This document shows positions 6,383 through 58,551 of a stretch of 64,000 nucleotides of DNA, in pieces (position 1 is the stretch's first letter; each line of letters begins with the position of its first letter). Origin of the DNA: Squalus acanthias. Taxonomy: Eukaryota. The stretch is from assembly GCA_030390025.1 (NCBI GenBank), contig CM059431.1:154320001-154384000 (forward strand), given 5' to 3'. The notes under the pieces were generated by a model. It had not been told where the DNA came from. It worked only from the letters and a program-made list of their open reading frames with translations, and ran no database searches. The translations under genes were made by a program, and so were the position numbers.

Positions 6383-6385
6383 TGG

Positions 6386-16645: not shown

Positions 16646-17180
16646 ATGGCTGAGAATCCGAATGAGAAATTCCGGGATAAAGCAGGATGTTTCGTGCGCT
16701 CTCTTCACTGTGACGAACGGTTTCATCCAAACGCTATGCCCGATGACCTCAGTGAACATCGGCACACGCGACTAGACGATCGAAAGCATTTTACTACAAA
16801 AAGATTTTTTAGAAAGGCGTCCTCTTTATCCAGCAAGAACAAGAGTCTTAATATAAAGTACTACAGGCAGAAGATCCCTGCAGGAATTGACTGGGGATCT
16901 GTGACATCTCGTGGCATGGTTAAAGGTATCAGTACAGAAATGGAACAAAGAGTTCCTACTGTGACCAAATCTCACACAAACATATTTACAAAGAACAGAC
17001 CTCTCATTTTCAAGCCAGAAATATTTAATTGGAAGCGAGAGGAACATCCTCCTACAGAAACACTGCTCAGAAAGTATACTTACAGTGACATCAGCCCCCA
17101 TCACAGAGTGAATGAAGATCTGCAACCGGGGCTGCAAGAAAAAGGAGCCTATGGATATGAAAGAAGTGAACACACATCCG
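16646..17180 (+). CDS. Candidate first coding exon (A1) of a host gene, putative NLR-like N-terminus
   Basis: Acceptor ttgttttag about 30 nt upstream; Kozak-like cATCATGG; 178 open codons + 1 nt; donor CCG|gtgaga (phase 1); no TE similarity recognised. Confidence 0.65.
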
Positions 17181-18502
17181 GTGAGATTACGCTCTCTTTT
17201 GAACTATATATCCGTCGGTATTGAAATTCAATCCATTGAACCTCAATCTGTGTTTTCAGTCTGTGTTAATTCTGTTATGGATTCTGACTTAGCTGAGACT
17301 GTTAACTCAGATCTAAAGCATTAACGTAAATGATGCTCTAAATGCTAAAGAAAGGCTCCGAATTCATGTCTTGGACATTTGGCAAACATACACTCAATCT
17401 CGGTTCAACCATGGCTGTCTGTTTGCTTTCTCCAGTAAAATGTCTTTGAAGCCTGAAGTTCTGGTTAACTCGGTCCATCTATCCGGCGTCCGTTAAAGGG
17501 TCCTCTGCTGACCGCCAACAAAATATAAGTTTAACATAATACTTACCTGAATGTGGAGCCAATAAGTTCAGGAGATCCCCACTTGGCACCATTTTAAAAC
17601 TACGGAGCCTTGCATGCCACTACTCTCGATTGTCACTCTCACTCTCCCGATGTTTGACGCTCTCGCTCTTCCACCAGTCCCACTCTCTCTCAGTCGACCA
17701 CTGCTCTCTCGCCCACGCTGGTCGTCCCTCCTTCACGATCGCATTGACCTCGCCCAGTCGCACCTTCCAGACCGTTGACATTAAAATCATGGTCACTAGG
17801 CAAGCTGCCTGTGGAGGCTCAGCAGGTGTTTGCACCTCCCCGGTATGCTCTGAACCAGACCAGAGACCAAATATCGGGTGGGTCTCAGGCCTACCCCTTA
17901 CGAGACAGGGATCGTTCTCAGCGTTAATTTTGGCTTCGTGTGATGTTGTAAAATCGGCGATAGCGAATCGAAATTACTAGCGAATGTAGTCAATGGATAT
18001 CAAAATCAGGATAGATGTAAAGACGGCTGCCCATTCAATTCAGCATGTTTTAATTTATCTCACAATAAGAACGTCACAATTACAGACCCTCCCCATTCCC
18101 AGTTCGCGCCAGCCAGCAAGAAGTAATTTCTAGGCCATTGTCTGTAAATTCACTGCTTGTGCTTTAAGCCTTCACCCTGCAGTGTGCTTATGATGATGCA
18201 TCGACTGCATACAGTAACCTGCCGTATATTCCAGTACAGTTCAGCCAGTCGATAAATAGCGTAATCATATAGACAAATGGCTTTATAGCTAATATATAGA
18301 GTGATCGACAGACAGAGAAACAGCGAGACAGGCAGAAATACAGTCAGACAGAAATATTCATAATGGTTATTAATTATTTGGCATTCCTCTTTGTTTTAAT
18401 GAATTATTTTGATGCAGTACTAGAGATTTCTAAGTACATCTTCCAAAGTATCCTTGTTTACTTCAACTACTCCGATATTTTTGTTCAACTTCTATTTTAT
18501 AG

Positions 18503-18672
18503 TGGATGATATTAATCGAGTTGGAACAACTGTGTCGACAGAAGCTGACACTAAACAATCTAAAGATACGGAATTGTATCGGGATGGAATTCCTGTAGCT
18601 ATTGAAGGATCTGTGGACGCTATAGGTGCAAATCAGAATCATAAAAATGCCGTCGCTCGGGTAGAATCTCAG
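18503..18672 (+). CDS. Candidate exon B1 (170 nt, phase 1 to 0), diverged death-fold/CARD-like half
   Basis: ttctattttatag|...|gtatgt; open frame (V)DDINRVG...TELYRDGIPVAIEGSVDAIG...VESQ. Confidence 0.72.
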
Positions 18673-19967
18673 GTATGTCTGACATAAATAGAACTGGACT
18701 TTTATTGACCTACGTAGCACGACTAGACTTCTATTGTTTAAATATTAGCTTTCGCGTACTTTATTTTCTGCAGTAGGCGAGTTGCACTGGGCAATGGAAA
18801 CACGGCCCACCGCTCCCTCTGCGACATTTTACATGAGGGAAAATGATGATTGCTGAGATTTACACTGCCTTACCTAATTTCCGCTCGGGTGCTTTCCAGT
18901 CGCTATTTTTGACCTATTTCTGCCCCGAACCTATTGCGGAGTGAAATCCGTGAATCGGAATCAGCACTGGTCTGAAAGTGGTATGTGGTGGACTTCCGTG
19001 TTCATCACCAACAGCCACTGCACTTTGATATTCAGAGATATCGGTTTTAGTGGAATATATGGTATATAATTGACGATATTCAGGAAGATCTGTTTTCGAC
19101 CCGTCCTCATTAAAGCTCAATGTTTCTTCTCCAGAATAACTTTGAACAAAGGTTCAATCATAGTTCTATTCCTTATTTTACCAGAATTAGGATACATTTT
19201 GTGGGCCGAGTAACTAAATAATCCCTAGGTCATGATCCGCTCCTGCATTCCCAACATCTTCCTCCTCACATCTAACCCCAACTCTTACATTGAATTTGAG
19301 GTTTCGCCTCGAATCAGAACACTCGCATTGTATCTGCATCAACTCCTCTATAACATAACTGTTAATTGCATTTCAATGCTCGCTCCAATCATCAGTCTTA
19401 TTCCGTTTCGCCCGCCAGTCTCCGATTAGCTTCGCGGTTCCACCATTCTTGGCTCCGGAATTTGTGCTCACGCATCGATTTTCACCGAGTTTTACTTTGA
19501 ATCATTGGAAGCGAAATGAACCTGTGAATTCAGCTTTCCTAATTCTACGGGATTTATATTTCTTGATTATGCTTCTGATGTCCCGTTCCTGTAAGTGCAG
19601 CGCTTCCCGCTCACCTCTGCTCAGTGCTGTTTCGTCAGATGTTTCTGAATTAGACGTTAAATCCACTCTCAATCTAAGGATACACGCGATTGCTCTCTTC
19701 AAGGCAAAATAAGCTTTTTGGGATCATATCGTCTCCAGTTTTAGGTAAATCATCTTATCAAAAAACTTTCTTGAATTTGATGTTTTCACTTTTGCTATTG
19801 TGATCCGCATCACGATTAATTTCTATTGTGTATGTTGTGCCTCCGCCCTGGGGAAACTAAAAGAATGAGTGTCCGTTGTTACACTGGATGTGAAATATGT
19901 TGCTTAGCCAGCTCAGAATCCGGAAAGTCAACCCTATTATATCCAGTCATATTCTTCTTATAATCAG

Positions 19968-20115
19968 AACCAACAGGAAATTGCTCCTACAGAAACAGTG
20001 CTCTGCACGGATACTTACAGTGCCATTAGAACCACAAAAATAATGAATGAAAATCAATTTCCGCGGCTGCAAGGAACAGGCGACAGCGGATATGAGAAAA
20101 CCGCACATTCATCCG
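19968..20115 (+). CDS. Candidate exon A2 (148 nt, phase 0 to 1)
   Basis: tcttcttataatcag|...|gtgaga; NQQEIAPTETVLCTDTYSAIRTTKIMNENQFPRLQGTGDSGYEKTAHSS; paralogous to the 3' end of A1. Confidence 0.7.
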
Positions 20116-20939: not shown

Positions 20940-21109
20940 TAACTGATAGTACTCGTGTTGGACCAACTGTTTCGGCAGACGCTGACACTCAGGAATCCAA
21001 AGATACGGAATTGCCTCGGGACAGAGTACCTGAAGCTGATGAAGAATCTGTGCCTGGTATCAGTGCAAATCTTCTTCATGGAAATATATTCACTCCGATA
21101 GATTCTGAG
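20940..21109 (+). CDS. Candidate exon B2 (170 nt, phase 1 to 0)
   Basis: ttgtattttatag|...|gtattt; open frame (V)TDSTRVG...NLLHGNIFTPIDSE; paralog of B1. Confidence 0.72.
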
Positions 21110-21142
21110 GTATTTTTGACGAAATTGAAATGAACTTATGTT

Positions 21143-22655: not shown

Positions 22656-22779
22656 AATCAACAGGAAAATGCTCCAACAGAACCTTTGGTCAGCACGAAT
22701 ATTTACAGTGACATCAGCCGCACTCACATAAATGAAGATCTAGGAGCCGGCAGAAATTACAGAAACGCGCACACATCGG
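22656..22779 (+). CDS. Candidate exon A3 (124 nt, phase 0 to 1)
   Basis: tcttgctataatcag|...|gtaaga; NQQENAPTEPLVSTNIYSDISRTHINEDLGAGRNYRNAHTS; 24 nt shorter than A2 with frame kept. Confidence 0.7.
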
Positions 22780-23253
22780 GTAAGATTACTCTTTCACTTG
22801 AACTGATATATCCACCAATATTTGTATGCAATACAGTAAACCTCAATCTGTGTTTTAGTCTCTTCTCATTCTGTTGTGGATTCCGACTGAACTGAGACTG
22901 TTAGCTCATCAACAGCAGCAACAACAACGTGTATTTATATAACGCCTTTAAAGTAGTAAAACGTTCCAAGGCGCTTCACAGGATTGTTAACTATAACAGT
23001 GATGTAAATTATAAGCTCAATGCTATAGAAAGCTTCAGAATTCACGTCTCGTCCCTCTGCCTAATTTTGCACTCTCCTTTAATTCAAGGCGTTCCGCTTG
23101 CTTTCTCTGATAAAGTGTCTGTGACGCCTGAAGTTACGGTTAACTCGGTCTATCAAACCCGCTGTCGATAAAGGGACCTCTGCAGTCCACCAGCAAATGA
23201 AAGGTTCTAAGAAACAAAACATTCCTGTATGTAGAGCCAGTGACATCAGTAGT

Positions 23254-23417
23254 CATGATGTGGAGAAGCTGGTGTTGGACTGGCAGTGTTCTCTGACTAT
23301 ATATGCTCTGTCTATATACATCTCTTCACTTAAGCCGACGATGGAGAAGCGCTGCGAAAGCTTTTGATTTCAAATAAAACTGTTGGACTATAACCTGGTG
23401 TTGTGCGACTTCTCACA
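23254..23417. mobile_element. Short Penelope-like pLTR insertion with inverted end
   Basis: Matches pLTR sequence; flanked by gacatcagtagt/gacatcaatagt TSD. Confidence 0.8.
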
Positions 23418-23429
23418 GACATCAATAGT

Positions 23430-24460
23430 AGTAGGGATAATTGGTAGGTACCCAAATTGGCAGGATTTTGGGGCATCAACTATTCACAGTATTTTTTAAC
23501 GACTTAGATGGTGGCATAGAAAGTGACATATCCAAACTTGCCGATGACACAAAGATAGGCGGCAGAGTAGGCAGTGTAGATGAAAGCATACGATTACAAA
23601 GGGGTATCGATAGCTTAAGTGTGCCAAATGGATTTCAATGCAGGCAAATGTCGGGCCATCAACTGTGGACCTAAAAAGAATAGAACCGGGTACTTTTTAA
23701 ATGGTGAAAAGCTAAAAATAGTGGAGGTTCACAGAGATTTGGCATCCAGGTACATAGATCGCTAAAATGTCATGAACATGTACAGAAAATAATCAAAAAG
23801 TTTAATGGAATGCTGGCCTTTATTTCCAGAGGACAAGAATACAAGGGGGTAGAAGTTATGCTGCAGCTGTACAAAGTTCTGGTTAGACCACACCTGGAGC
23901 ACTGTGAGCAATTCTGGGCACCACGCATTAGGAACGATATATTGGTCTTGGAGGGAGTGCAGCGTAGGTTTACCAGAATGATACATAGACTTCAACGGTT
24001 CAGTTACAAGGAGAGATTACACAAATTAGGGTTCTGATCCCTAGAATGTAGAAAGTTAAGGGGTGATCTGATCGAAGTTTTCAAGATATTATGGGGAGCA
24101 GATAGGGTAGATAGAGAGAAACTATTTACCCTAGTTCAGGATTCTAGGACTCGGGGGCATAGTCTATAAATTAGAACCAGACCTTTCAGGAGTGAAATTA
24201 GGAAACACTCTGCACACAAACGTTGAAGATTGGAACTCACTTCCACAAACGGCAATTGATGCTAGAACAATTTTTAATTTTAAATATGAGATTGACAGCA
24301 TTTGTTAACTAAATATGTTAATGGATATGGGCCAAAGGCGGGTATCTGGACTAAGGTCGCAGATCAACCATGAACTCATTGAATGATCTAACAGGCTCGA
24401 TGGGCTAAATGGCCTACTCCTGTTCCTATGTGGCTATGTTGCAATGTTCCTATATTCCTA
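23430..24460 (+). mobile_element. CR1 RT/3' end fragment
   Basis: [18 protein letters not shown], (tgttccta)n tail. Confidence 0.88.
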
Positions 24461-24499
24461 GTTTTCCTCTTGGCTCCACTTTAAAACTACTGGCTATTG

Positions 24500-24615
24500 T
24501 CGGCTAGTTTGGTAGCATATTGGTTCCTTTACTGGACTACTAATCCAAAGGTCAGGACTACTGATCCGGAGACGTGAGTTCAAATCCCACAAAGGCAGCT
24601 GGGGAATAATGTTAA
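24500..24615 (+). mobile_element. tRNA-derived SINE head (partial)
   Basis: Box B-like gagttcaaatccc preceded by tactggactactaatcca. Confidence 0.5.
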
Positions 24616-24914
24616 AATAAAGGAATCTGAGAGTGGGGTGAGTGACCAATGATTGGAAGTATCCAGGAATTGGGACTAATCATTAGCTGAGAGTGCTTCA
24701 GTACACAATAGTTAGGACCACGACGCTTTTAAAACGGAAACGACTTCACAGCTAGCACCTTCTGCTTTCTGAAAGCCCCACAGAAGTAAAAATTTTTGCT
24801 TTGAAGGACATGTAGCATGATATGATTCTGATTTAAAGGGTGGTATGCAGTGGTTACTATGTGGTTACTAATAAAGTGTAATTAAGAAATGATCACTGGA
24901 CTCAATTTAGAACT

Positions 24915-26710
24915 ATAGCAAAATACTGCGAATGATGGAAAATTGAAACAACAACAGAAAACGCTGGAAAAACTCAGCAGGCCAGGCAACATCCGTGGAG
25001 AGAGAAGCAGAGTTAACGTTTCAGGTCGAAACCCTTCGTCAGAACTGAGAAAAAAGCAGGAAATGAAACAGATAAAAAAGCATGGGTGGAGGCTGGGGGG
25101 AGGAATAAAAGAACAAAAAGGTGTTGTCTATGGTAAGTAGAGACATTAAGAGATGCTCAAGGCAAGACGAGATGGTAATAGGACAGGTTAAGAAACAAAA
25201 GGTTGCTCAGAAGTGTGAAGTGTGAAATGCTGGCAGAATGATAGTCAGCTGCCGTGGGGCGAGAAAGAGTAAAAAAAGGGAAAAGGCACATACCAAAAGG
25301 GTGGATAAAATGTATATATATATGTGGTAGGGGCCGAGGTTATGATCTGAAATTGTTGAACTCGATATTGAGTCCGGAGGGCTGTAAAGTGCCTCATCGG
25401 AAGATGAGGTGCTGTTCCTCGAGCTTACACTGAGCTTCCGTGTAAGAATGCACGAGGCCGAGGACGGTGAGCTCTGAGTGGATGTGGAGAGTTGAATTAA
25501 AATGACAAGCGACCGGAAGCTCGGGGTCACCCTTACGGACTGAACGGAGGTGTTCAGCAAAGCGGTCACCCAATCTGCGTTTGGACTCCCCAATGTAGAG
25601 GAGACCACATCGTGAGCAGCGAATACAGTATACCAGAGTGCAAGATATACAAGTAAATCGCTGTTTCACCAAGAAGGGGTGTTTGGGGCCCTGGAGAGTG
25701 GGAAGGGTGGATGTTTAAGGGCAGGTGTTGCATCTCCTGCGCTTGCACGGGAGGGTGACGGCCGAGGGGGAAGGGGGAAGGGGGTTGATAGAGGAGTGCA
25801 CTAGGGTGCCTCGGAGGGAGCGGTCCCTACGGAATGCTGAAAGGGGAGGTGAGGGGAAGATACGTTTGGTGGTGGGATCACGTTGGAGGTGGCGGAAATG
25901 GCGGAGGATGATCCGTTGAATGTGGAGGCTTGTGGGGTGAAAGGTGAGGACAAGGGGAAACCTATCGTGGTTCCGGGAGGGACGGGCCGGGGTGAGGGCA
26001 GAAGTGCAGGAGATAGAGCGAACACGGTCGAGGGCCGTGTCGACCACGGTAGAGGGGAATCCTCGTTTGAGGAAAAAGGAAGATATGTCGGAAGCACTGG
26101 TATGGAAGGTGGCATCGTTGGAGCAGATGCGGCGGAGACGGAGAAACTGGGAGAAGGGAATAGAGTCCTTACAGGAGGCGGGGTGGGAGTAAGTGTAGTC
26201 CAGTTAGCTGTGGGAGTGAGTGGGCTTGTAGTGAATGTTGGTCAATAACCTATCCCTAGAGATGGAGACGAAGAAGTCGAGGAAGGGAATGGAAGAGTCG
26301 GAGATGGACAATGTGAAGGTGAGGGAAGGGTGGAAATTGGAGGCAAAGTGAATGTAATTGTCCAGTTCAGGGCGAGAGCAGGAAACGGCACCGATACAGT
26401 CGTCAATGTACCAGAAAAAGAGGTGAGGGAGGGGACCTGATTAGGACTGGAACAAAGAGTGTTCCACATATCCCACGAAAAGGCAGGCATAGCTAGGACC
26501 CATGCGGGTACCCTAGCAACAACTTTAATTTGGAGGAAATGAGTAGATTCAAAGGAGAAGTTGATCAATGTAAGAACAAGCTCAGCCAGGCGGAGGAGGG
26601 TGGCAGTGGATGGGGATTGATTGGGCCTCTGTTCAAGGAAGAAGCGGAGCGCCCTCAGGCCATCCTGGTGGGGGATGGAGGTGTAGAGGGATTGTACGTC
26701 CATGGCGAAA
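24915..26710 (-). mobile_element. Penelope-like element (second family): decayed RT + GIY-YIG
   Basis: MDVQSLYTSIPH (PLE RT), PLVLTFHP, VYCIRCSRCGLLYIGESKRRLGDRFAEH (GIY-YIG). Confidence 0.92.
25012..25044 (-). ncRNA. Minimal hammerhead ribozyme motif (PLE type)
   Basis: Minus: GTT-CTGACGA-AGG(gtttcga)CCT-GAAACGTT-AAC. Confidence 0.75.
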
Positions 26711-27559
26711 TGAACTAGTTGGATGCAGTAATGGAGTGAGTACGTGTAGAATAAGGGTGAGATGAAATTTAATGAAATTTAATGAACTGTTTTTCAAAGC
26801 AACTGACGTTGCGTGGCAATCTGAAATGTCGACACAAGCAGGCCGTTTAACTTAGAATTTGAGTGGGAAGGATAAGAACATTAGCATAAAAGTTACCAGA
26901 ATAATACAAATATTCTGATTAACTACCTTCAAGCCTGCACTCTGTTTTGTAGCCAGTTTTTATCCAATCAGTACATGACCTCTGACTTCAAATGTTCTGT
27001 CCTTAGTCATGTGGCTACTATGTGGTGCCTTACTGAAGGCCTTTTCAATGTATATTACATCCACTGCATTACCCTTGTCTACTCGTTCTGTTACTTTTTC
27101 GAAAATTGAATAATTTGGTTAAGAATAACCTGCCCTTTAAAATATGTGCTGATTATTCTTTATTATATTTTTGTTTCTAGATTTTTTTCCATTAAATATT
27201 TGAGTAAAAATGCCAATATCTCTCCTAACCACCAACTTTAAGCTAACTGTTCTATAGTTCCCAGGAATTGTTCTATATCCCTTTTTGAATATATATCTTC
27301 TGGCACTATTCCCTTACAATTGAATGCTTTAAATATATATATGGGTTTTTAACCTCTCGAAATTTGTCTAGTTTTTGCAATTACCTCACTCCTATCTATG
27401 TTAAATTTCCACATAGCCTTTTGATGTCTTCTTCTAATGTTATGTCCACGTTGTTTTCTCTCTGGTAAAAACTGAGGCAAAGTACCTATTCAATATATCG
27501 GCCATTTCATTGTCAGTACTAGTGACATTATCATGTGTATTCTTTAGTAACTCGAACCC

Positions 27560-30500
27560 ATTCTTGATGGAGCGGATATGTGGTCGGAAGCTCATCTCAG
27601 CGTCAAATAGGACGTTAAGTTCGTGAACGGTCTGGTCCAGCCTGAGACAGTGGCAAGGGAGAGAGATAGATTTGATGGCTAAGGAAGGGAGTTTTGGCAG
27701 GGACCAAAGACAATAGCTTCGGTCTTTCCAATAAACTTCTGGAGGAAATTTCTGCTCATCCATTTCAGGATGTCGGACAAGTAGATTAATAACAGAGAGT
27801 TGATGGTTCGAAAGCGGTGGTGGTGAGGAGAGCTGGGTGCCGTCAGCTTACATGTGGAACATAACGTTTTGTTTTTGTATGAAACCTCCGGCTGGAATCA
27901 GATAAGATGAGAGATAGGAGGAAATCGAGGATAGGTCCATGGGGTATTCCAGAGTTAATGGTGCGAGAGCGGGAATCGAAGCCATTGCAGGTGTTCCTCT
28001 GACTAGGAATGGATAGATAAGAATTGAACTAGGCGAAGACAGGCCCACCCAGCTGAACCCGGGATGAGTGCCGCTGGAAGAGGATGGTGTGGTCAACCAA
28101 GTCAAAGACTTCAGACAGTTCGAAAAAGATGAGGAGCCAAGGTGGGTCACAAAATATGTTTTGTGTGAATTTGATAAGGGCCGTTTCAGAGCTGTGGTAA
28201 GTGCTGAAACACGTTTGCATTTGCGGGAAACTACGGCATGGATTTGGGAAGCGCAAACACGTTCATTGACTTTGGAGAGGGATGCGAATTTGAAGATGGG
28301 GCGGTAGTTTGCAAGGACAGAGGGGCCAAGGTAGGGTTTTGTGAGGAGTTGGTGAACATGGCGGATTTCATTTGGAGGGAGACAGTACCTGAGGAGAGGG
28401 AAACGTTAACAATATTTGCTAACGTTGGGTTCAGGAAGGGAAATTGTGTGGTCATCAGTTTAGTTGGAATAGGTTCGATGGAGGAGGAGGTGTTTCTCAT
28501 GGGTACAATGATCTCGGAGAGGTGATAAAGTGAGACAGGAGAGAAACTAGAGAAAGTTCGATTTCAGGGCCAGAGAAGTGGTGAACCTTTAGGGAAGTTT
28601 GGTATGGTGGGCTAGCGGAAGGGTGGGAAGAGGCTGAGGGACCTGAACGGATGGTCTCAACCTTAGTGACAAAGACGTCCATGAGATGCTCGCACATTTT
28701 GTTGGAGGTGAAGTTGGATGATACAGGGGAGAGGGGTTTACATAGAACAGTACAGCACAGTACAGGCCCTTCGGCCCTCGATGTTGTGCCGAGCATTGTC
28801 CGAGACCAAGATCAAGCTATCACACTCCCTATCACTCTGGTGTGCTCCATGTGCTTATCCAATAACCGCTTGAAAGTTCCTAAAGTGTCCGACTCCACTA
28901 TCACAGCAGGCAGTCCATTCCACACCCCAACCACTCTCTGAGTAAAGAATCTACCTCGGACATCCCTTCTATATCTCCCCCCATGCACCTTATAGTTATG
29001 CCCCCTTGTAACAGCTGCCTCTACCCGAGGAAATAGTCTCTGAACATCCACTCTATCTATCCCCCTCATCATCTTATAAACCTCTATTAAGTCGCCTCTC
29101 ATCCTCCTCCGCTCTAAAGAGAAAAGCCCCAACTCCCTCAATCTTTCCTCATAAGACCTCCCCCCCAAACCAGGCAGCATCCTGGTAAATCTCCTTTGCA
29201 CTCTTTCCAATGCTTCCACGTCCTTCCTATAGTGAGGTGACCAGAACTGCACACAATATTCCAAATGTGGTCTCACCAAGGTCCTGTACAGTTGCAGCAT
29301 AACCTCACGGTTCTTAAACTCAAACCCTCTGTTAATAAACGCCAACACACCATAGGCCTTCTTTACTGCTCTATCCACTTGAGTGGCAACCTTCAGAGAT
29401 CTGTGGATATGAACCCCCAGATCCCTCTGCTCCTCCACATTCCTCAGAACCCTGCCGTTGACCCAGTAATCCTTATTCAAATTTGCCCTACCAAAATGAA
29501 TCACCTCGCACTTATCAGGGATAAATTCCATCTGCCATTTTTCGGCCCAGTTCTGCATCCTATCAATGTCTCTTTGCAGCCTACAACTGCCCTCCACCTC
29601 ATCCACTACTCCACCAATCTTGGTGTCATCAGCAAATTTACTGATCCACCCTTCAGTCCCCTCCTCCAAGTCATTGATAAAAATCACAAACAGCAGAGGA
29701 CCCAGCACCGACCCCTGTGGCACACCGCTGGTAACTGGTCTCCAGTCCGAAAATGTTCCATCCACCACCACCCTCTGCCTTCTATGAGATAGCCAGTTAC
29801 TTATCCGATCGGCCAAATTTCCCTCTATCCCAGAACTCCTTACTTTCTTCATGAGACGACCATGGGGAACCTTATCAAACGCCTTACTAAAATCCATGTA
29901 TACGACATCAACTGCTCTACCTTCATCTACACACTTAGTTACCTCCTCAAAGAATTAAATCAAATTTGTTAGGCAAGACTTACCCTTCACGAATCCGTGT
30001 TGACTATCCCTGATTAAGTTGCCCCTTTCCAAATGGTCATAAATCCTATCCCTCAGGACCTTTTCCATTATCTTACCAACCACCGAAGTAAGACTAACCG
30101 GCCTATAATTACCAGGGTCATTCCTATATCCTTTCTTGAAGAGAGGAACAACATTCGCCACTCTCCAGTCCTCTGGCACCATCCCCGTGGACAGTGAGGA
30201 CCCAAAGATCAAAGCCAGAGGCTCTGCAATCTCCTCCCTTGCCTCCCAAAGAATCCTAGGATATATCCCATCTGGCCCAGGGGACTTATCGACCCTCAGG
30301 TTCTTCAAAATTGCTAAAACATCTTCCCTCAGAACATCTACCACCTCCAGCCTATCCACCTTTATCACACTCTCATCCCCAAGAACATGGCCCCTCTCCT
30401 CGGTGAACACTGACGAAAAGTATTCATTCATCACCTCTCCTATCTCTTCTGACTCCATGCACAAGTTCCCACTACTGTCCTTGACCGGCCCTACCCTCAC

Positions 30501-41310: not shown

Positions 41311-42344
41311 ATTTTTGGAAAATGCGGAAATATCATCTCAGAAGAGATTCAGTTTCTTTTGAGGAAAATACAGTTGACATTAATGATGCAAAGGTAGCGA
41401 TAGTGCAATACAAATTGCATTTCCGTTGATGAAAGCTCTAGATCCTCCATATCCTGGGATTCACTCTCTAAACTATTCCGTCCCAGAAATTCGTCTCGGG
41501 CGGTGGCTACAAACGGGCATTGTCGGATCAACCGCCCGTTATACACAGCGCCTGATATTGAGTTCCAACCCTTTCTGAACCCCTGTTATCTCTTTTTGGA
41601 ACCCGATATGCGTCTTCTTGTCTCATTAAAACTTATTTCGGGCGCTTTGGATTATATACTTTTCCAAGTTAAAAGTGTCAAATAAATGCACGTTTCTGTA
41701 TTTGATAATTAGATATTTAATAGCTTTCCCCTATCACACTGAGGTTTATACCCAGGTATATTCAATCGTGAAACTGTACCAGGTATACTCATAATTTAAA
41801 CATTGTATTAGTAATTTCTTATAATTTTCTGTTGATATCAAAAACTTTTTTTCCAACGTTGTCTTCTTGTACTCTGTGCATTGACATCCAAGAAGTTTAG
41901 TGTGAGCACATTTGGCTTCACATTATTCCATTATTCAGTTCCCATATCCCAGTTTAGTTTTCTATCAAAGAAATAAATAAATAGCTTGCAGTTACTGTTT
42001 CATTGGTTTTAATCTATGTGTATTATTTATTAGCTCTTTTGGAAAATATTTAAACGTCACGTCTATGTAAAGTTCTCAGCAGCCTCTGGTGACCACAGGG
42101 CATTACATCTAACCTGGAGTCTCCGATCACCGTCCGAAACCATGTAGGGGGTGGTGTGGTAGGGTCAGCTTCACCTCTGACTCAGTGAGCGGTTTGAATC
42201 GCTCCCACGCACCTGGTACTAGACCTTGGACTTATTTGGTGGTCGTGAAAAAAGTTGCAGTTGACAACAGGTTTTGATGAAAGAATTTCGATCTTTATGC
42301 AAGAAAGTAAAACACAACACAAACACTCTTAACCCTCTAAAGGT

Positions 42345-43990
42345 CATGATGTGGTGATGCCGTTGTTGGGCTGGGGTGGACAAATGTGAGAAGTCGCACA
42401 ACACCAGGTTATAGTCCAACAGTTTTATTTGAAATAACAAGCTTTCGGAGCGCTGCTCCTTCGTCAGGTGAGGTGAAGAGATGTATATCGGCACAGCATA
42501 TATATTAAGAGAACACTAATTAATCTTTCTAACAGCCCTTTATCACACCTCGGAAGAGAGACAATCACGGCAATCAAAGGTGTGGATGGTGTTTATACAG
42601 GTCAGTCAGGAAAACATTACATCAAAGACAATGAGGTGGGGTCACAAGGGGTCAATTGTGGCAGATGCTGGTGTCTGTATGGAAAACAAAAAACTTTTTT
42701 TGCTGGAAATCACAGCAGGTCCGGCTGCATCTGTGTAGAGAGAACAAGCCAACGACGACTCGAGTCTGGATGACTCTACGTCAGGTGGGATTATATGAAG
42801 CGTGACATGAACCCAAGATCCCGGTTGAGGCCGTCCTCATGGGTGTTGAACTTGGCTATCAGTTTCTGCTCGACGATTCTGCGTTGCCGTGTGTCTCGAA
42901 GGCCGTCTTGGAGAATGCATACCCGAAGATCGGAGGCTGAATGTCCTTGACTGCTGAAGTGTGCCCCGACTGGGAGAGAACACTCCTGCCTGGCGATTGT
43001 TGCACAGTGTCCGTTCATATGTTGTCGCAGTGTCTGCATGGCCGCGACGATGTACCATGCTCCGGGGCATCCTTTCCTGCAACGTATGAGGTAGACAACA
43101 TTGGCCGAGTCACATGAGTATATACCATGTACCTGGTGGGTGGTGTCCTCGCGTGTGATGATGGTATCTGTGTTGATGATCAGGCATGTCCTGCAGAGGT
43201 TGCCGTGGCAGGGTTTTGTGGTGTCGTGTTCGCTGTTCTCCTTAAAGCTGGGTAATTTGCTGCGAACAATGGCCTGTTTGAGGTTAGTCAGCTGTTTCAA
43301 GGTGAGCAGTGGAGGTGTGGGGATGGCCTTAGCGAAGTGTTCGTCGTCATCGATGACATGTTGAAGGCTGCAAAGAACATGGCGTAGTTTCTCCGCTCCG
43401 GGGAAGTACTGGACTACGTAGGGTACTCTGTTGGTTGTGTCCCGTGTTCGTCTTCTGAGCAGGTCTATAGGATTTTTCGCTGTGGCCCGTCGGAGCAGAA
43501 ACTGATAGCCAAGTTGCACACCTATGAGGACGTCCTCAACCGGGATCTTGGGTTCATGTCACGCTACATGTAACCCCACCTGACCTAGAGTCATCCAGAC
43601 TCGTGTCGTCGTTGGCTTGTTCTCTCTACACAGATGCGGCCGGGCATGCTGTGATTTCCAGCAAATTTTTTTTTGTTTTCCATGCAGACACCAGCTTCTG
43701 CCACATTTGACCCCTTGTGACACCACCTCATTGTCTTTGAAGTAACCTTTTCCTGACTGATCTGTTTGGACACCATTCACACCTTTGATTGCCGTGATTG
43801 TCTCTCTGCCGAGGTGTGATAAAGGGCAGTTAGAAAGATTAACTTTAATCGTCTGGCAGTGTTCTCTGACTACATATACTGTGTCGATATACATCTCTTC
43901 ACTTCAACTGACGAAGGAGCAGCGCTCCGAAAGATTGTGATTTCAAATAAAACTGTTGGACTATAACCTGGTGTTGTGCGAATTCTCACA
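42345..43990 (-). mobile_element. Penelope-like element with inverted pLTRs, inserted in the LTR
   Basis: ORF 42791..43519 (RVPYVVQY, NVVYLIRC, GLNRD); 43490-43990 is an inverted copy of about 42385-42870; 10-bp TSD ctctaaaggt. Confidence 0.94.
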
Positions 43991-45727
43991 CTCTAAAGGT
44001 AGGGAACACTTCGGTACACGCGAGGGAAATAACTTTAGAAGAATACTTCACCCCTCCCAATCCCACTTCACGAGCTAGGTTGGACTCTGCAGAACCAGGG
44101 ATAATGCTCACCAAACGAATCGTTGGCAGTTGAGAGTTAGGGTTTAGAGTATTTTGAGTAAAAGGTTTCATAAGGGCCTTGTTGCCGCGAGGTGTCCGAT
44201 GGTCACTGAGGCGGTCGCTCTGGTCTCTTCTTGCGTGTCGGCCTACTTCTGGAGCTGTTGGCTTTCTTTGTTGAACTGCTTTATGTTTAAACTGTCTTGT
44301 TCCGAGCTGTGGAACTGCCTTATTGCAGAACTGTGGAAACTGCCTTCTGCCTGCTTGTTGAACTTGAACTGTTTTACTGGAGAACTGGAGAACTCGCTCT
44401 TTACTGAACTGTTTTCTTTAACTACCCAACTTGCTTTTCCTGAACTCTGTAATTACAGCACTGACTTCTGCTGAAAACGGGCTTTCAAATTGAACTCCAA
44501 AACTGCAGAACAGCCTCCTGTTGAACTTGAACTGTTGTAACTCCTGAACTGCTTGATGGGCCTTCAATTATTTTAAATTGAAGTGGCCTTATCAAAACCA
44601 ATCCAAATTATTGTAAGACCTCGTTAACAGTAACGACTTTACTAGCGTGTTACCTGGTTTTGTAAATGTGTGAAGTGGTTTTCAGGATAGCTCCATCTTG
44701 TCGATCTGTTTTTTACTGGGTTCTGAAATCGATTTGATGGGACCTGTTGTTTTGGGTGGGGCTGTCTCCTCCTAGGGTCTATTGTCAAGATGTTAATACT
44801 TTCTGGGGCTTGAGTGAGGTCATCCCGATTCCCCAGAAAATGCTATTTAACCGCAATACCCAAAACTGCTTTTGCGGAGGTCGAACCCAACTTCCTTCAC
44901 AGCCTTTTCACCCTTCACAGGCCCAGACATGCTTTTAAAATGCCAAACTTTGGTTTTTGGCCTTACACTCTCTTAGGTTAGGCACAAATGCATTTTTATC
45001 ACACCGAGGGAGTTACAAAGTTCTTTTTCCTTAGGTTTTGGGGATGTGAAAATTTTGGAAACCTTTCATTCCCCCCTTCGATACTTTACCTCACTACAGT
45101 ATCCTTGTGGGTGGACAAAATTCCTGATCCCCAAAGACCAAACCTTCCACTGTATTACCTAAACTAAAACCCAAAAACATACATTCCCCTTTTTGGTGCA
45201 GTGTTCCAATACATACAGGTAAGCATGAATAATACATACACATCCAAGCCCGGAGGGGGTCCTACACCCCTACACCACTTGGAAAATTATAGTACATACA
45301 TAGTAAAAATGATACACGATCACAAACTTTATTCATTTTAATAAAAACAAATTAAGGCTCGCCCTTAACCTGGCCATAGGCTTCATTGCAATGCTGGTCC
45401 CATGCTTTCTCACGTCGGCATCGGAGTACTCTGTCCTTTCCCTTGCATTTTGTGCACAGCAAGTCACCGATGCTCACCCCTACCAGGGCGAGGAGGAGCA
45501 GAACCTTTCTAATGCCGATTTCCTCTCTGTAGGGACACACAAAACAGATAGCCATGTCCCGAGAAGGTTCTTTGACTTGACAGGTGATCGAGTCTCGAAA
45601 ATTTAAATTTACTTAAGTAAAATCTTAAAACTAGAATTCTTATAAATCCTAAAACTTCCAAAACTATTAAAAAAACACTTAAAATACTAAACTCTGTACA
45701 TTCGCCGCCCGTCTCTGGACGGCAGGG

Positions 45728-48570
45728 CTAATCCCTGTTCGGGCTCTGCCTTTTGCTGCTTTTGGGCAGCTGGTAAGGTGGCCTGTACCGCAGGACCCTG
45801 AGAGTCCTTCTTCTAAAGCACACTGCCCCCTTTGTTGTGGCTGCTTCTGAGTCCCTGTCCTGTCCTGTGGGTTTCGCGCAGCCTGACACCGCAGGCTGGG
45901 GACCCTTCTTGTGTTCCTGGCTCACAGCTGCTTCTGTGAGACCCTCTCTGCAGGAGGCTGTAGGCTGGGGATCCCTGTCCTTAGACTGATCCCTGAGCTT
46001 GGGCTTTTCTTTACGGGTTACAACCCTCTTTGCGTGGAACCATTTAAACTGATACACTGGAGACCAGGATGGTTTATGCTGTGGTGTGCGGGGGGACCTT
46101 CTTTGGACTCTAGCCACTGGGGGAGTGCCTGTGTCCCACATAATCGATGGATTAAACCCTTCTGTGATACAAGCCCCTGTCCACGTCGCTGCAGTCTGTG
46201 AGTCTGCCACAGCTGCTGGCTGGGGATTTCCATCTTCAGGCTGTACATCTTCCAAACCTGTGTCGGGGTCAGGTAACTCTCTGCAGCCTAATGCTGCGGG
46301 CTGGGGGTCTCTGCCCTCAGGTCCCACCAACTCTAAATCCCAGAGGAGTGGGGGAGTGTTCCCAACGGTGGGTGGGATGGCCCTTCCCTTAAGACAGGTC
46401 ACTGCACCTGCTTGTGCAGTCTGTGGCTTTGCTCCTGCTGCAGACTGAGGATTTCTATCCTGTTTTATTTTGGGCAACTCTGCTACGATGGCTTGCAACT
46501 GCGGGGTGGTGAATTCCCCCGGGATTGTTAAGCAAACCATCTCTCTGGCTTTCGATAGGGCTTGGGTCAGACCTTTTATCCTTTCCTCACAGGGCCCATG
46601 GTTTAAATCCTCATACCCCCTGCTCCTGGCTACCCTGTATGCTGCCTTTATGTCTCCAAGCTGCCCTTCGAGCCCATCTACTTTACCCGTTAATCGGGTG
46701 TTCTCCTCCCGTAAGGCCTGCTCATTTAACCTGGCCTCGTTACGGGAGGTCTCTTCCTGTGCGTGTCTTTCAGGAGGACACAGGTTGACAGGCTGCGCTG
46801 GTTCGAGTCATAGGTCTGGGTTGTATAGGACAAATGGGGTCAGAGCACCGGTGGTTGCTGCTACCTTCCCTGGGCAAGTCAATATGGTCCTCATGGCGTC
46901 CAAAAATGGCTCGACCGTGGCGGGAGGGATCCCTGTCTCTGCCTTTTGGGCTAGGGCTAAGGAATTATTTCCCTTGTTATCCTTACAACGATTCTTACAC
47001 TCCTTCCTCCAGTGTCCATCCTTCCCACACCCATAACTGTTAAGCTTTGTGCTTGCAGGGTTATTCCCTTCCTGATGCCACTCCTTCCTACGCTGGCCGG
47101 GTTTTATTTCATGCACTTTCCCTTTTGGTGCGGGCTCTTCAGCCCCTCTACCGTTCCGCTATGCCAGGTTCAGCTGTCTGACACTGCCTCCTCGTTGACC
47201 CAGGGGTCTCTCGGGTCAAACCAAAGCTCAGCCTTGGTTTTGATGCCTGGCAAGCTTTTTGCCACTCGGCTTCGGAGCCAGCGGGCCAGCTCATTCCGTT
47301 TCATGCTCGCTCGATCGAGATCCCCATTACAAACACCCCTGTACACAGGTCACAGCCTGTCTGCGAAAGCCTGTGGGGTCTCCCCTGCGAGCTGCACTGT
47401 CTTCTCCACCCGAGAGAATGGACCACCCTCATTCATCCCCATTGACTGTAAAACTTCCTCTCTGATGGCAGCATAGCCATTCTGTCCTCTCTTGCTCTCA
47501 GCAGAGAGGGACTGGTATAACTTACCATCCAGTGAGAACAGGAGCATTTTTGCCATATCGGCATCATCACAGTCATTGATGCCTGCTGACTGTTCCACTT
47601 TTATGAAGTGAACTGATTGGTCCCCCTGTTGGGGAAGTTTACTCAAGTGGCTTACCATAGCCCTGAGCTATTGGGTACCGTGGGGAACTACGAATTGGTT
47701 TTGGAGTGGTCCCCCCTCCCCGTTATCAGCGGGTGGACCAAACACTTGCTGCCGGGCCGGGCACATCGGCCCCGGTCCCAGCCTCTCTTGCGGGGGGTTT
47801 TCCACCTCAGCTTCTGCCCCTAACTCCACCCCCCTTTCTTGCGAGACTTCGCTAAAGGTTGGCGCTATGGGTGGTGGTCGTGGACCCTCCTGCTCCTCAG
47901 CCGGGTCGTGCCTTGGCACTATCTGTGGTTGTCTGAACCGTTCTCCCCAGGTTCCCTGGAAAGTCGACCTGTGCTGCACTCGGGCTTATGAGGCACACTA
48001 TGCCTTTTGCCTTCCTTAGAGCAATGCTCAGATCTCTATCTGCTTCTGGCAGGGGCCATGGTCTTCATCATCAAACCCCTGTGCGCTCACTACCTTATAC
48101 GCTACCTGTAAGACTTTTATTGTCTCCTCCTGCTCTCTTACTTGTTTTGCCAGGCTGCATTCTTTTCCCGGAACCTCTGATCATTTTTCTTGACCTGTGA
48201 CCTGTCACTGTAAATATTCCTGCCGGGTCTTATGCTCCCCCACTAACTGCTCCCTTTTGCTGGTTTAGAGCCTGCAATGATAACAGTAACGTCTCCCCTG
48301 CTAGTTCTTTTGTTTGGACTTCCAGGGATGACTCCCGAATCTCGGCTGCCTGTGCTTCAACGAGTCTGTCCAAAAGTTAAATCTGTTTCTTGAAGCACAT
48401 CAGCCAGACTGCCTTTTCTAAGGAATTTTTATGATCCTTCCCTTCTGTTCATTTAGCTGCAGCATCTACCGTGCGCCCAGACTTTAACAGATTAGTGACC
48501 CACTTCTTTTCCATATTCACCTTGCTGAATACATAAGCTGAAATCCTCTCTTCCATTACAGTACTCTCTT
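45728..48570 (-). pseudogene. Disrupted gag-like ORF with long C-terminal extension
   Basis: Capsid-like segment ...GETPQAFADRL (47350..47658); knuckle YGCGKDGHWRKEC (46808..47116); same frame continues past one TGA to 45728. Confidence 0.75.
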
Positions 48571-50556
48571 CCGAATCATTGTCTACTGCTTCACAAGCCT
48601 TTTGCCAAGTTCGTGCCACGGTCGCCATTTTGTAGGGGGTGACGTGGTAGGGGTCATCCTCACCTCTGACTCAGTGAGCGGTTCGAATAGCTCCCACGCC
48701 CCTGCTTCTAGACCTTGGACTTATTTGGGGTTTGTGAACAAAGGTGCAGTAGACAACAGGTTTTGATGAAATAATTTCGATCTTTATTCAAGAAAGTAAA
48801 AGTCAACACAAAACGTCTTAACACTCTAAATGTGGGTAACACTTCGGTACAAGCGAGGGAAATAACTTTAGAAAAATACTTCAACCCTCCCAATTCCACT
48901 TCACTAGCTAGGTTGGACTCTGGAGAACCAGGGATAATGCTCACCAAACGAATCCTTGGCAGTTGAGAGTTAGGGTTTAGAGTATTTTGAGTAAACAGTT
49001 TCGTAAGGCCCTTGTTGATGCGAGGTGTCTGATGGTCACTGAGGCGGTCGCTCTGGTCTCTTCTTGCGTGTCGGCCTATTTCTGGAGCTGTTGGCTTTCT
49101 TTGTTGAACTGCTTTCTGTTTAAACTGTCTTGTTCCGAGCTTTGGAACTGCATTCTTGCAGAACTGTGGAACTGCCTTCTGCCTGCTTGTTGAACTTGAA
49201 CTGTTAAACTGGAGAACTGGAGAACTCCCTTCTTACTGAACTGTCTACTTTAACAACCCAACTTGCTTCTCCTGAACTCTGTATTTCCAGCACTGACTTC
49301 TGCTGAAAACAGGCTTTCAAATTGAACTCCAAAACTGCAGAACTGTCTCCTGTTGAACTTGAACTGTTGTAACTTCTGAACTGCTTGATGGGCCTTCAAT
49401 TATACTAAATTGAAGTGGCCTTATCAAAACCAAATCAAATTTTATAAGACCGCGTTAACAGTAACGTCTTTACTCGCGTGTTAACTGGTTTTGTAAATGT
49501 GTGAATTGGTTTTCAGGATAGCTCCATCCTGTCGATCTGTTGTTTAATGGGTTCTGTAATCGCTTTGATGGGACCTGTTGTTTTGGGTGGGGCAGTCTCC
49601 TCCTAGAGTCTATTGTCAAAATGTTAAAACTTGCCGGAACTTGAGTGATGTCATCCCGATTTCCAGACAATGCTATTTTACTGCAATACCCAAAACTGCT
49701 TTTGCAGAGGTCGAACCCAACTTTCATCACAGCGCTTTCTCCCTTCAAACGCCCAGACATGCTTTTAAACTGCCAAAACTTGATTTTTCGTCTTACAATC
49801 TCTTAGGTTAGGCCCAAAGGCATTTTTATCACTCTGAGGTAGTTCCGATGTCCTTTTCCTTAGGTTTTGGGGCTCTGCAAATTTAGGAAACCTTACAAAC
49901 ATTATAGGTTAATTCTATGGACATACACTTCAATATAAATATTTGCTTCTACATATACTTGCTTTTGGGAGCTGATGACTCGATTCCTCAAACGACCTTT
50001 GGACACCGCCCTTTATAAACTCCAGCTTCTCCAGAGTTCTATTTCTAAAATTCAGCCTCAGTTCCATGTATCCATAATCTCCTACATTAATGACATACAT
50101 CACTTCTTATCCCAAATTGACCATTTGTGAAATCCTCCTCCTCATCTACAAATCCCTCTTTGGTCTAGCCCACTTTTCTTCTACAGTCTTCTTTCGCATA
50201 TCTTCAATTACACTCCTAACCCTACTCTCCCCTTGCTGTGGTCCCAAGTGTATGGTATTCTCTGCTACGTACTACAGGCAAAAGGTTCAGCCAAACTGAC
50301 TGTGTCTTCGTTCCTATGGGCTTCCATTTCATTACTTCTTGCTTACTTTAAACAGCCTCCAACTGTTGTAAGATCTGGGCCAATTCTCTGATCTCTACCA
50401 AAAATAGGCAGCTTTAATGCTGATTCCTCCTCTGTGAGGCGCCATAGGTCCTTTCACTGTCCTAAATACATGCTGTTGCTATAGCAGTTATTCAGAGTAC
50501 TCATTGTCTCATAGAGGACACTATATATTAATATTTTCTCATTTACATCTTGACAG

Positions 50557-50725
50557 AAAATACATATACTAGAATCTTACTAATGTTGGCGAGCTACACT
50601 GATATCCAGCTGCGGAGCATTATAGAGCGCTACCGTCAGAGACTAGAACATTCCATTGAAGAATTCGTGGAGGACGTTAGTCATCGCTACTAGAAGCAAA
50701 CGTGTTTAATGAAACAGACCATAAG
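50557..50725 (+). pseudogene. Candidate exon C: death-fold/CARD-like first half, with 1-nt frameshift
   Basis: tttacatcttgacag|...|gtatgc; (E)NTYTRILLMLASYTDIQLRSIIERYRQRLEHSIEEFVEDVS-fs-SLLEANVFNETDHK; 169 nt versus 170 for B1 and B2. Confidence 0.75.
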
Positions 50726-52281: not shown

Positions 52282-53704
52282 GGGCCAGAAATTCGGGTCT
52301 CCACGGGTGAGTACACGCTGGGTACTCACACGTAGAATCAAGGAAAGTGCGGGTTTCACGCATGCACTGCGCATGCGCTGGATAGCAGAACTTCCGTTCC
52401 ACTGAAGGAAGGGGTTCAGAGGTCGTTTGTGTGCGCAGGAGATGCAGCGCGCACGCAGGGAACTTCGTTTTTCTCAGGTTTCTCTGTGAGGGTAAGTACG
52501 GAGAAGCTGCGTGGGGAAAAAGGAGGTTTAAGGCCTGCTTTTAACAAGGTCAGTGGTGAATTAAGTACAATTTTTTCAACAGGTTTATCTTTTTTACATT
52601 ATTTTAAGAAAGGTAAGTTTATTTTTAGCAACGTTAAAAAGTGTAATTAATTTTTTCAAAAATTTAAATTTTTGTTTCAAGTAGTAAATTTATGTAATTT
52701 ATAGTTATTTTAAAAATGTGATTTTTTAAAAAATGTATTTGAAGTTTTAGTGAGATTTTGGGGCTGACCTCTATTCATAGATTTGACAGCTCTTCCAGGC
52801 CCACGTGATACCAGCGACGCTTCGAAATAACTGTGCCCCTGGGATACGCAAGCACTGCGCGCCGGCAGCTGCAGGAGGCCCAGGAGCCGAATTCCACGCA
52901 GGTACGAAGCACAATGTCAGGCGCGGTATGCAAGTATGCACACGATTCTTCCACCCGCGGGAAGCCAGAGAGCCGAATTTCTGGCCCAAATGGGCCAGAA
53001 ATTTGGGTCCGGGGATTCCCGCGGGTGCAAGCATTGCGGGTGCACTTACATAGCGCGCCTGCGGTTGTGCTCTGGGCCCGCGTGGAATTCTGATCCTGGG
53101 CCTCCTCCAGTTGCTGGTGTGCAGTGCTTGTGTATCCCAGGGTGGCAGTTAGTTCGAAGTGTCCCCTGGGATCACGTGGGCCATGAGGATCCAATCGGAG
53201 CAGGGAATCTTCATTCATATATTTGACGGGAAGACCTGTCAAATCTATGAATAGAGATCGCCCCTAATCCTAACTAAAACTTCAAATAATTTTTTTTGAA
53301 ATATCACAATTTTAAAATAAAAAAATAATTACAGTTTTTAACGGGGCTAACAGTAAACTTACCTTTCTGTAAAGTATTTAAAAATAATTCCCTGTGGAAA
53401 TTTTTTTTTAATTGTTCTTTATTCACCACTTACCTTTTTAAAAGCAGGCCTTGCACCCGCTTATTCACGGCGCAGCTGCCAGGGACTTACCTTCACAGAG
53501 TAACCTGTAAAAAAAAACGGAAGTTCGCTGCGTGCACGCTGCCTCACCCGCGCACGCTGGTGACCCTCGAACCCCTTCCTTCAGGAGACCGGAAGTTCCG
53601 GTTTCCCGTGCATGCGCAGTGCATGCGCGAAACCGGCACTTCCGGCGGATCTACGGGTGAGTACACAGCGTGTACTCACCCGTGGGGACACGAATTTTTG
53701 CCCC
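52282..53704. mobile_element. Two Harbinger-like MITEs in inverted orientation (52282-52987, 52992-53704)
   Basis: Each is bounded by gggccagaaatt-type TIRs; outer flanks AAT/AAT; the second is a diverged reverse complement of the first. Confidence 0.85.
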
Positions 53705-54614
53705 AATGTAGCAATAAGAGTATCAGAGTGATATGTGACTTTAAATATCTAAATTATAGAAGTGACGTACTGGTGGAAGGGGGGGGGGGATGCTATCTGC
53801 CACGTGTCCAGGACGTTAGATAGATGGGTACGGTTTCAGGACAAAACGGAATAAATGAGTATTAGATCCATTTCAGCAAACGCATAATGGTAGTGGAGTA
53901 TCTAATTATGAAGGATTAACTGCTAAGCTTTTGATAATGTATTGATGAATTAAATTTACAATGACTAAAATTCTCATTGCAGTCAACGGGAAAGAAATGC
54001 GGACGCGTGTAAAAGGGGTTGCCCATTCGCTATCAGCACCTTTCTCGACACTGGCCGACTCCAATTTCACGCACATTGTGTCCGAAATTTTAGGTTTATC
54101 AATTTGTGCAATTTGAGTTTCTGAAAGCACATCGCGAGCTTTTCAAAATATTACTGTTACTAACAAGAAATCATGCTTGATTTTGCTCGAATCATATTCG
54201 TGCAGTCGGACTTTTTCCCTATTATTTGACATTTTACCCATTTTCATCTATTGGTTGAGTTTCCCTCGGTGACTCATCGCTGCTCATCTCTATCTGTGCA
54301 ACTTCCTTCAGCTCAACAACACTCCCTGATCTCTGCGATCATCCAATTCTGGCCTTTTTCGCATCCCCGATTTTCTGCACGCCACCATTGGCAGCTGTGT
54401 CTTTAGCTGCCTCTCTAATCCTGTCCGGCTCTCTGCCACTCTCTCCTCCTTTAAGACTCTCCTTAAAATTTAATTGTTGACGAAGATTTTGGTCGTCTTA
54501 TTGTGAGCTTTTCTATTTATTCCTCTCCTAAAGGGCGGAAGAAAGAAAACAAACGTTTCTTACTTGATTCTGTAGAGTCCTTGGCTCAATACGATTGCAA
54601 TATATATTTTTTAG

Positions 54615-54813
54615 GAAATCAGAACATTTGCTGAAAGTGAGCGCAAAAACGAAGCCTCCCAACTCATTTTCGATACCGTGCTGAAAAAGGGAGCTCGGGT
54701 GAAAAGTATAATGTGGAACATATTTCTTCGACTGCAGAATACAAAACCCAAGATGAACGCGATATTGTTGGAGATACAGAACAGAGGCACAGGGGCAGAA
54801 AATGATCTAGAAG
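54615..54813 (+). CDS. Candidate exon D: death-fold/CARD-like second half (phase 0 to 1)
   Basis: ttttttag|...|gtaggt; EIRTFAESERKNEASQLIFDTVLKKGARVKSIMWNIFLRLQNTKPKMNAILLEIQNRGTGAENDLE; contains a CARD-like helix 4-5 pattern (L..V..KG). Confidence 0.78.
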
Positions 54814-55930: not shown

Positions 55931-55935
55931 ACAAC

Positions 55936-58550: not shown

Positions 58551-58551
58551 A

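Follow-up and report, generated by a model that had tools for sequence, protein, structure and literature searches.

A probably dead CARD-NACHT-LRR gene in a Squalus acanthias NLR cluster, with candidate spacer exons derived from half-CARDs

A stretch of 64,000 nt within the 3.7-Gb genome of Squalus acanthias (CM059431.1:154320001-154384000, referred to here as the window) contains seven exons that, judged from sequence, are very probably the 5′ half of a duplicated and now dead member (a pseudogene) of a shark and ray family of CARD-NACHT-LRR receptors (NLRs). Followed beyond the window, the gene very probably has the exon order A1-B-A-B-A-C-D-(C)-NACHT-LRR-LRR across ~76 kb. Two features of this gene deserve consideration: the pair of exons that is predicted to encode its CARD, and the alternating A and B exons that precede that pair.

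Results

The exon chain in the window

The exons and introns, all on the + strand, are as follows.

16618..17180, +: 28 nt between a conserved acceptor and the ATG, plus the coding part of A1
16646..17180, +: exon A1, ATG at 16646, 535 nt of coding sequence (178 codons), ending in phase 1; polar and low in structure
18503..18672, +: exon B1, 170 nt, phase 1 to 0; apparently a degenerate copy of the C-type (first CARD) exon
19968..20115, +: exon A2, 148 nt, phase 0 to 1; duplicates the final 49 codons of A1 and has an acceptor of its own
20940..21109, +: exon B2, 170 nt, phase 1 to 0; apparently a second degenerate C-type exon
22656..22779, +: exon A3, 124 nt, phase 0 to 1; a shortened A repeat
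22780..50556, +: A3-C intron, 27,777 nt, mostly mobile elements
50557..50725, +: exon C, 169 nt, predicted to encode the first CARD half; frame shifted beyond codon 43, with the stop of the chain at residue 428
54615..54813, +: exon D, 199 nt, predicted to encode the second CARD half; open, phase 0 to 1
54814..64000 and on, past the window end, +: intron 3′ of D

A first-pass annotation of this DNA had proposed the seven exons, with AG/GT sites in compatible phases, and all were re-read at the places claimed. The junctions 17180/18503, 18672/19968, 20115/20940, 21109/22656 and 50725/54615 proved exact, each with its AG and GT; two ends left unstated are the A3 donor, after 22779, and the C acceptor, before 50557. 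Joined, A1 to A3 read 382 codons with zero stops. The frameshift claimed for C is likewise present, since C has 169 nt where ungapped paralogous copies have 170, and because this exon is one base short the unrepaired chain from A1 to C ends at residue 427, inside C. The many genome matches of these exons (at least 150 for D, 112 for C and 29 for A1), together with exon lengths and splice sites that are kept the same in the paralogs, indicate that they are not chance. An AG lies 28 nt 5′ of the A1 ATG and occupies the same position in 9 of 12 A1 copies; 11 of 12 retain the ATG. Because this acceptor is conserved, and because in-frame stops separate it from the ATG in one open paralog, A1 is likely a second exon, preceded by a non-coding one.

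It had also been suggested that extra exons may sit in the 27-kb gap between A3 and C. DNA profiles built from A (10 copies), B (14), C (40), D (44) and A1 (8), run with filters off, found no extra family exon between 22846 and 50495, nor between D and the second C exon described below. The gap is colinear with the corresponding paralog introns (6.8–12.1 kb) only over its first ~470 nt and last ~600 nt; its remaining matches to paralogs are scattered and repeat-like, and it contains a long interspersed nuclear element (LINE), inverted-repeat elements and an element with long direct repeats. Hence the gap is better described as a single intron enlarged by mobile elements. A tblastn search with the hydrophobic ends of XP_078087540.1 (P0122) and P0126 gave no match at E<=0.01 to a membrane-anchor exon in the regions fetched, a weak search given that such exons diverge fast.

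The NACHT and LRR exons and the lesions of the gene

A + strand phase-1 NACHT exon had been predicted after position 64000, and the 400 kb that follow the window contain one, ~19 kb past the window end, with two LRR exons beyond it. The numbering here continues that of the window.

78252-78421 (CM059431.1:154398252-154398421), +: orphan C exon, open, with no D partner
From 82878, phase 1 (CM059431.1:154402878-154409352), +: NACHT-WH-HD2 exon
83737-88491 (CM059431.1:154403737-154408491): LINE insertion in the NACHT exon, 4,755 bp
~CM059431.1:154411674-154412279: two open LRR-type exons, found by tblastn with shark NLR tails, as in open paralogs

Among these downstream pieces Pfam reports NACHT (PF05729, 107 bits, E 1.1e-30), NOD2_WH (PF17779, E 1.9e-8, above cut-off) and HD2 (PF17776, E 2.9e-6, below cut-off). 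The Walker A motif reads GSPGIGKS and Walker B reads FIFDDFDE, as against DGLDE in two simple paralogs. As in the family at large, a C+D module stands before a single NACHT exon, and that NACHT is close to those of shark and ray models.

The earlier view that the gene is broken in C is correct, but the damage is not confined to C. Specifically, when compared with an open paralog that is 90% identical, the NACHT exon carries +1, -2 and -1 indels, the 4,755-bp insertion and the loss of its splice donor, and a DNA profile search found no D exon between the second C and NACHT. The insertion contains a 1004-codon endonuclease/reverse-transcriptase frame; reading it as an intron was rejected because its ends lack GT/AG and because of the LINE frame inside. 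With at least six lesions over three exons, the gene lacks the intact reading frame of a functional NLR, and any transcript would likely end at residue 427, before a full CARD, and be subject to nonsense-mediated decay. On its own branch the NACHT exon has accumulated 55 non-synonymous and 24 synonymous changes and zero nonsense changes in the 562 codons compared, with a branch pN/pS of 0.69 versus 0.58 and 0.49 in open paralogs. The absence of nonsense and a pN/pS near that of the paralogs suggest that inactivation was fairly recent.

Such a recent date would also fit a null allele or an assembly artefact, with the gene functional in other haplotypes or individuals, as would the open state of A1–A3, D and both LRR exons. 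Two of the indels, both NACHT frameshifts, sit in single-base runs and are possibly assembly errors, which weighs against a dead gene. We nonetheless consider this explanation very unlikely, because the lesions, at least six in three exons, are of differing kinds: the LINE, the -2 deletion, the lost donor, the missing D and the deletion in C are not of the single-base-run kind, and sister genes in the same assembly read 2,689 and 1,553 codons without error. It is also worth considering that the 5′ half might persist as a short gene that does not depend on the dead NACHT part, with A1–A3 and part of C giving either a largely unstructured protein of 427 residues or a regulatory transcript. The 382 stop-free codons extend over five exons whose sites are all canonical, and the shark models P0151 and P0158 combine an A/B-like spacer with CARDs and no NACHT. 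However, these models retain two whole CARD modules where the window copy has none, the stop falls in an internal exon and truncates the CARD, and an open frame is expected anyway after a recent death; a short gene of this kind seems highly improbable to us, and we continue with the reading of a recently inactivated NLR gene.

Exons C and D as a predicted two-exon CARD

When the NACHT exon of a cluster paralog is used as a query, 370 proteins match at E<=1e-100, and the best 120 of these 370 were examined. Among them, 119 come from sharks or rays and nearly all are automatically named NLRP3- or NLRP12-like; the C and D profiles match adjacent segments in 113 of the 120. The first-pass annotation had likened C+D to the CARD-like N-terminus of expanded cartilaginous-fish NLRs of NLRC3-like type. 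The CARD-like fold and the shark and ray NLR family hold, but the NLRC3-like label finds no echo in the names of relatives: the nearest named proteins are NLRP3/12-like, none of the best 120 of the 370 matches bears an NLRC3-like name, and only two LRR exons were seen in the gene. Searched against 1.84 billion representative sequences, the D profile gives 83 matches, the nearest being one catshark protein (3.5 modules) and one smooth-hound NLR (3 modules), and no family member among those 83 has more than 3.5.

A domain model built from 23 public sequences has a predicted local distance difference test (pLDDT) score of 93. Its top six VIA-align matches are five named CARDs and an entry titled ‘unknown protein 4’ (Z 11.6–12.3; root-mean-square deviation 1.6–3.2 over 80–89 residues), the CARDs being those of NLRC4, caspase-1, NOD1 and ARC, and the best death domain reaches Z 7.9. 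Foldseek likewise returns the ARC and NOD1 CARDs, with probability 0.99–1.00. In a model of GCB66031.1 (P0121), which belongs to the nearest subfamily, CARD matches occur in all three full modules (pLDDT 66; top Z 11.7), compared with a single PYD row at Z 6.7, and no Pfam PYRIN match was found among the sequences scanned. From these models, C+D is predicted to fold as a CARD, that is, a six-helix death fold closest to CARDs.

Several observations weigh against this prediction. The models are of relatives, and the window's own C+D is split and frameshifted. Foldseek finds nothing for the domain model at E<=0.001, and a VIA-align Z of ~12 falls in the range that the tool flags for helical bundles. 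The Pfam CARD profile matches weakly, in 6 of the 23 domain sequences at E<=0.1 (best 1.1e-4) and, on single exons, in 1 of 14 D and 2 of 10 C. In sequence searches, Pfam CARD PF00619 does not match P0121 or P0122 at E<=0.01, a search of solved structures with the C, D and C+D profiles yields nothing at E<0.03 (the ICEBERG CARD appears at E 0.41), a word-based protein search with D alone finds no match, and Pfam assigns no family to six of the seven single window exons. Weak Pfam rows that would make exon C an Annexin or herpes sequence were rejected as chance.

The 1,254-aa cod protein CAL8349490.1 (P0124; Arctogadus glacialis) contains at least 8 stretches that Pfam identifies as CARD; being a poly-CARD protein in which Pfam finds no NACHT, it was rejected as a family member. 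Unrelated as it is, it shows that poly-CARD chains are present in bony fish too.

The A and B exons as a candidate spacer of decayed half-CARDs

A2 and A3 each duplicate the end of A1, and exons and introns recur together with a ~2.9-kb period at 72–77% identity. The B exons share with C-type exons the same 170 nt and the same phases; the DNA profiles of the two cross-match weakly, hhalign aligns them over 52 of 56 columns (probability 94.8, E 5.5e-8), and the B profile, which finds a match in 29 of 202 proteins, matches public NLRs mostly in the C region. The B exons thus appear to be degenerate C exons, i.e. decayed CARD halves.

Among the ungapped copies there is 1 nonsense codon in 12 B and 13 A exons, where 7.4 and 12.0 would be expected from tree length; the dN/dS values are 1.33 (B) and 0.96 (A). 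Because dN/dS is ~1 and yet stops lie far below expectation, we infer that A and B form a coding spacer whose frame is kept rather than its sequence. Four gapped copies stand outside the stop count and weigh against this, one having a stop, one a frameshift and two in-frame deletions. T, S, E, R, D and N are abundant in the A1–A3 product. Such a spacer is likely not confined to the Squalus acanthias genome, because A/B-like segments also occur in other shark models: the zebra-shark RefSeq model XP_048381274.2 (P0158) has a full B-like segment (E 7.9e-7) with an A-like segment (E 0.006) immediately after it, and shorter matches occur in a bamboo-shark model.

An alternative treats the A and B exons as non-coding debris left by segmental duplication, or as parts of a different gene, that are never spliced to C-D. 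This would account for a dN/dS near or above 1 and for the 27.8-kb gap before C, and it suits the finding that A1, B and A exons have no Pfam family and that a word-based protein search with A1 alone, itself a weak search, finds no relative. Yet stops are strongly under-represented, splice sites and lengths are kept at 72–78% nucleotide identity, the ends of the A-to-C intron are colinear in paralogs, A1 precedes C-D-NACHT at several loci, and the zebra-shark model contains the B-to-A junction; for these reasons we attach very little weight to the debris explanation and favor a coding spacer.

Sister genes in a 6-Mb cluster

The gene lies in what appears from sequence to be a 6-Mb birth-and-death NLR cluster. 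Mapping of CM059431.1:153.7-159.6 Mb, in which all counts are lower bounds, gives at least 116 D, 110 C and 36 NACHT matches; 15 of the 36 NACHT matches are in open frames of at least 577 codons, and the other 21 have stops or short frames. Two simple open paralogs, 5 Mb away, have the layout A1(ATG)-C-D-NACHT and read 864 and 863 codons without a stop. At 155.84–155.87 Mb, on the - strand, an open paralog, A1-B-A-B-A-B-A-C-D-NACHT, reads 1,191 codons without a stop, with all internal sites canonical. This closest open architectural twin counts in part against our interpretation, in that its A1 ATG and acceptor are lost and its first Met is codon 143.

Other members have multiplied their C+D modules. 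At CM059431.1:154573320-154716450 there are 17 tandem modules, and 36 exons, including NACHT and one LRR exon, read 2,689 codons with no stop. The gene at CM059431.1:155427732-155521491, on the + strand, has a spacer of four B-A repeats, 8 CARD modules and open NACHT and LRR exons, and its 8 pairs read 1,553 codons. At CM059431.1:153719773-153799156, 13 D and 12 C exons, the first exon being a D, precede an open NACHT; this locus looks like a duplicate of the 17-module gene. The 68 array exons contain zero nonsense codons against ~20 expected. A simple functional reading of these genes meets some difficulties: the 17- and 8-module reads each require one in-frame alternative AG 9 nt downstream, the A1-type exon of the 17-module gene is interrupted by ~10 kb and contains a stop, the 57 kb upstream of the 8-module gene yielded no A1, and there is no family exon within 60 kb upstream of the 13-module gene. 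Elsewhere in the cluster, on the - strand at CM059431.1:158835169-158902412, lie nine very young C+D modules (96–97% identical), with no NACHT in the 45 kb fetched downstream.

Neighboring genes and mobile elements

The genes on either side of the window gene are also incomplete. At CM059431.1:154297233-154311408, 9–23 kb before the window, is a fragment with the order A1-C-D(divergent)-B-[D/A chimera]-B-A, in which the last A has a stop; no NACHT belonging to this fragment precedes the window's A1. The next gene downstream, CM059431.1:154434225-154473021, is broken as well, with three C exons bearing stops or frameshifts, one frameshifted D and only the 3′ part of a NACHT exon.

The other features of the window are mobile elements and repeats.

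3986-8023, -: long terminal repeat (LTR) retroelement with open frames of 545 aa (gag-protease) and 800 aa (reverse transcriptase-RNaseH-integrase)
28815-31829, -: LINE within the A3-C intron, with endonuclease and reverse-transcriptase frames
42385-43990: long-inverted-arm element in the A3-C intron, nested arms of 133–174 nt
43988-49872: two ~1,050-nt direct repeats, 4.83 kb apart and 84–94% identical, flanking short - strand frames without a Pfam match; possibly an LTR element
52281-53705: long-inverted-arm element in the C-D intron, arms of 105–192 nt
55404-55878: tandem array of period 39, 12 copies, immediately 3′ of exon D

Discussion

It is useful to consider how such a gene might have arisen. 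The ancestor would have been a simple A1-C-D-NACHT-LRR gene, a layout still open at the two loci 5 Mb away, in which a 2.9-kb block, comprising the last part of A1 plus a C-type exon but no D, was then duplicated. Since the C half takes the frame from phase 1 to phase 0 and the A piece restores phase 1, every additional block would lengthen the protein in frame by ~106 residues. The orphan half-CARD would then have lost constraint on its sequence and kept its frame, becoming a polar spacer, and C+D pairs, likewise phase-1 cassettes, would have multiplied in sister genes. The window copy would have died afterwards and fairly recently. Living relatives may be cytosolic sensors that oligomerize through NACHT and seed a CARD-CARD assembly of a caspase or adaptor, by analogy with NLRC4; in CARD NLRs of that kind, NACHT oligomerization clusters the CARDs that seed caspase-1 or ASC filaments (PMC13680356).

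Taken further, the cluster may build NLR N-termini from phase-1 cassettes, with whole two-exon CARDs repeated, as many as 17 to a single open frame, and half-CARDs recycled as a tunable disordered spacer. The pre-linked CARD chains of the sister receptors might seed or sequester a caspase-1 or adaptor filament, and cassette skipping might set the number of CARDs. The dead gene of the window would then be a preserved intermediate, with spacer repeats, one whole CARD and one orphan half. We offer this scheme tentatively, as a possibility that we rate somewhat below even chances.

As a dead copy, the locus itself changes little. What it suggests is a source for the repetitive N-termini of shark NLRs, in which a CARD half-exon without a partner is kept in frame as spacer, an instance of domain decay and reuse. 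The models further suggest that the death fold of a large family is a CARD mostly overlooked by standard profiles. If it is true that the many-module CARD NLRs are expressed, they would give sharks a candidate for a direct route to caspase-1. No description of spacers derived from CARD exons, or of shark NLRs with poly-CARD chains, turned up in the literature searched, a search that left most subscription journals and supplements outside its reach, including a whale-shark NLR supplement that may bear on domain content. The expansion of shark NLRs is known; its N-terminal make-up was not found described in that literature, and what appears new is the derivation of B exons from C exons and the open frames kept by A and B.

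The closest known proteins are the automatically annotated elasmobranch ‘NACHT, LRR and PYD domains-containing protein 3-like / 12-like’ NLRs, within which the nearest subfamily is represented by XP_078087540.1 (Mustelus asterias) and GCB66031.1 (Scyliorhinus torazame). XP_078087540.1 resembles the window gene in placing a CARD module ahead of NACHT-WH-HD2-LRR, and in both proteins the counterparts of the second, open C exon and of D are 56–58% and 43–47% identical, respectively, to those of this gene. A further likeness is their tandem modules (3 and 3.5). The window copy differs in being broken and in having A/B spacer repeats not seen in either; the hydrophobic N-terminus of XP_078087540.1 has no match found at the window gene. 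The death fold in this family is predicted, on our models, to be a CARD rather than the PYD of the automatic name.

Expansions in other fishes provide further points of reference. An ‘NLRP-related’ NLR expansion has been reported in the whale shark (PMC8455134); the part of that report available gives neither the N-terminal domain nor the exon structure. A 2026 preprint on the elephant shark found no CARD-bearing NLR among 98 (10.64898/2026.07.03.736391), which may reflect the same blind spot of profiles or a true difference of chimaeras. In zebrafish, the large NLR-B30.2 family has one big NACHT exon and N-terminal peptide repeats on single, extensively duplicated exons (PMC4852459), which by analogy offer a precedent for the spacer repeats. 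Those repeats are ~30-residue motifs for which the available part of that source states no CARD origin, and the family has B30.2; in the window gene, in contrast, the repeats alternate with apparently decayed half-CARD exons, and the gene was followed as far as the second LRR exon.

Finally, the order of an N-terminal CARD, NACHT and LRR in the window family is that of NLRC4, NOD1 and NOD2. Those receptors carry one or two CARDs. The window family differs from them in sequence (14–19% identity), in having 1–17 modules in the cluster and in the extra N-terminal helix that its CARD has in the model.

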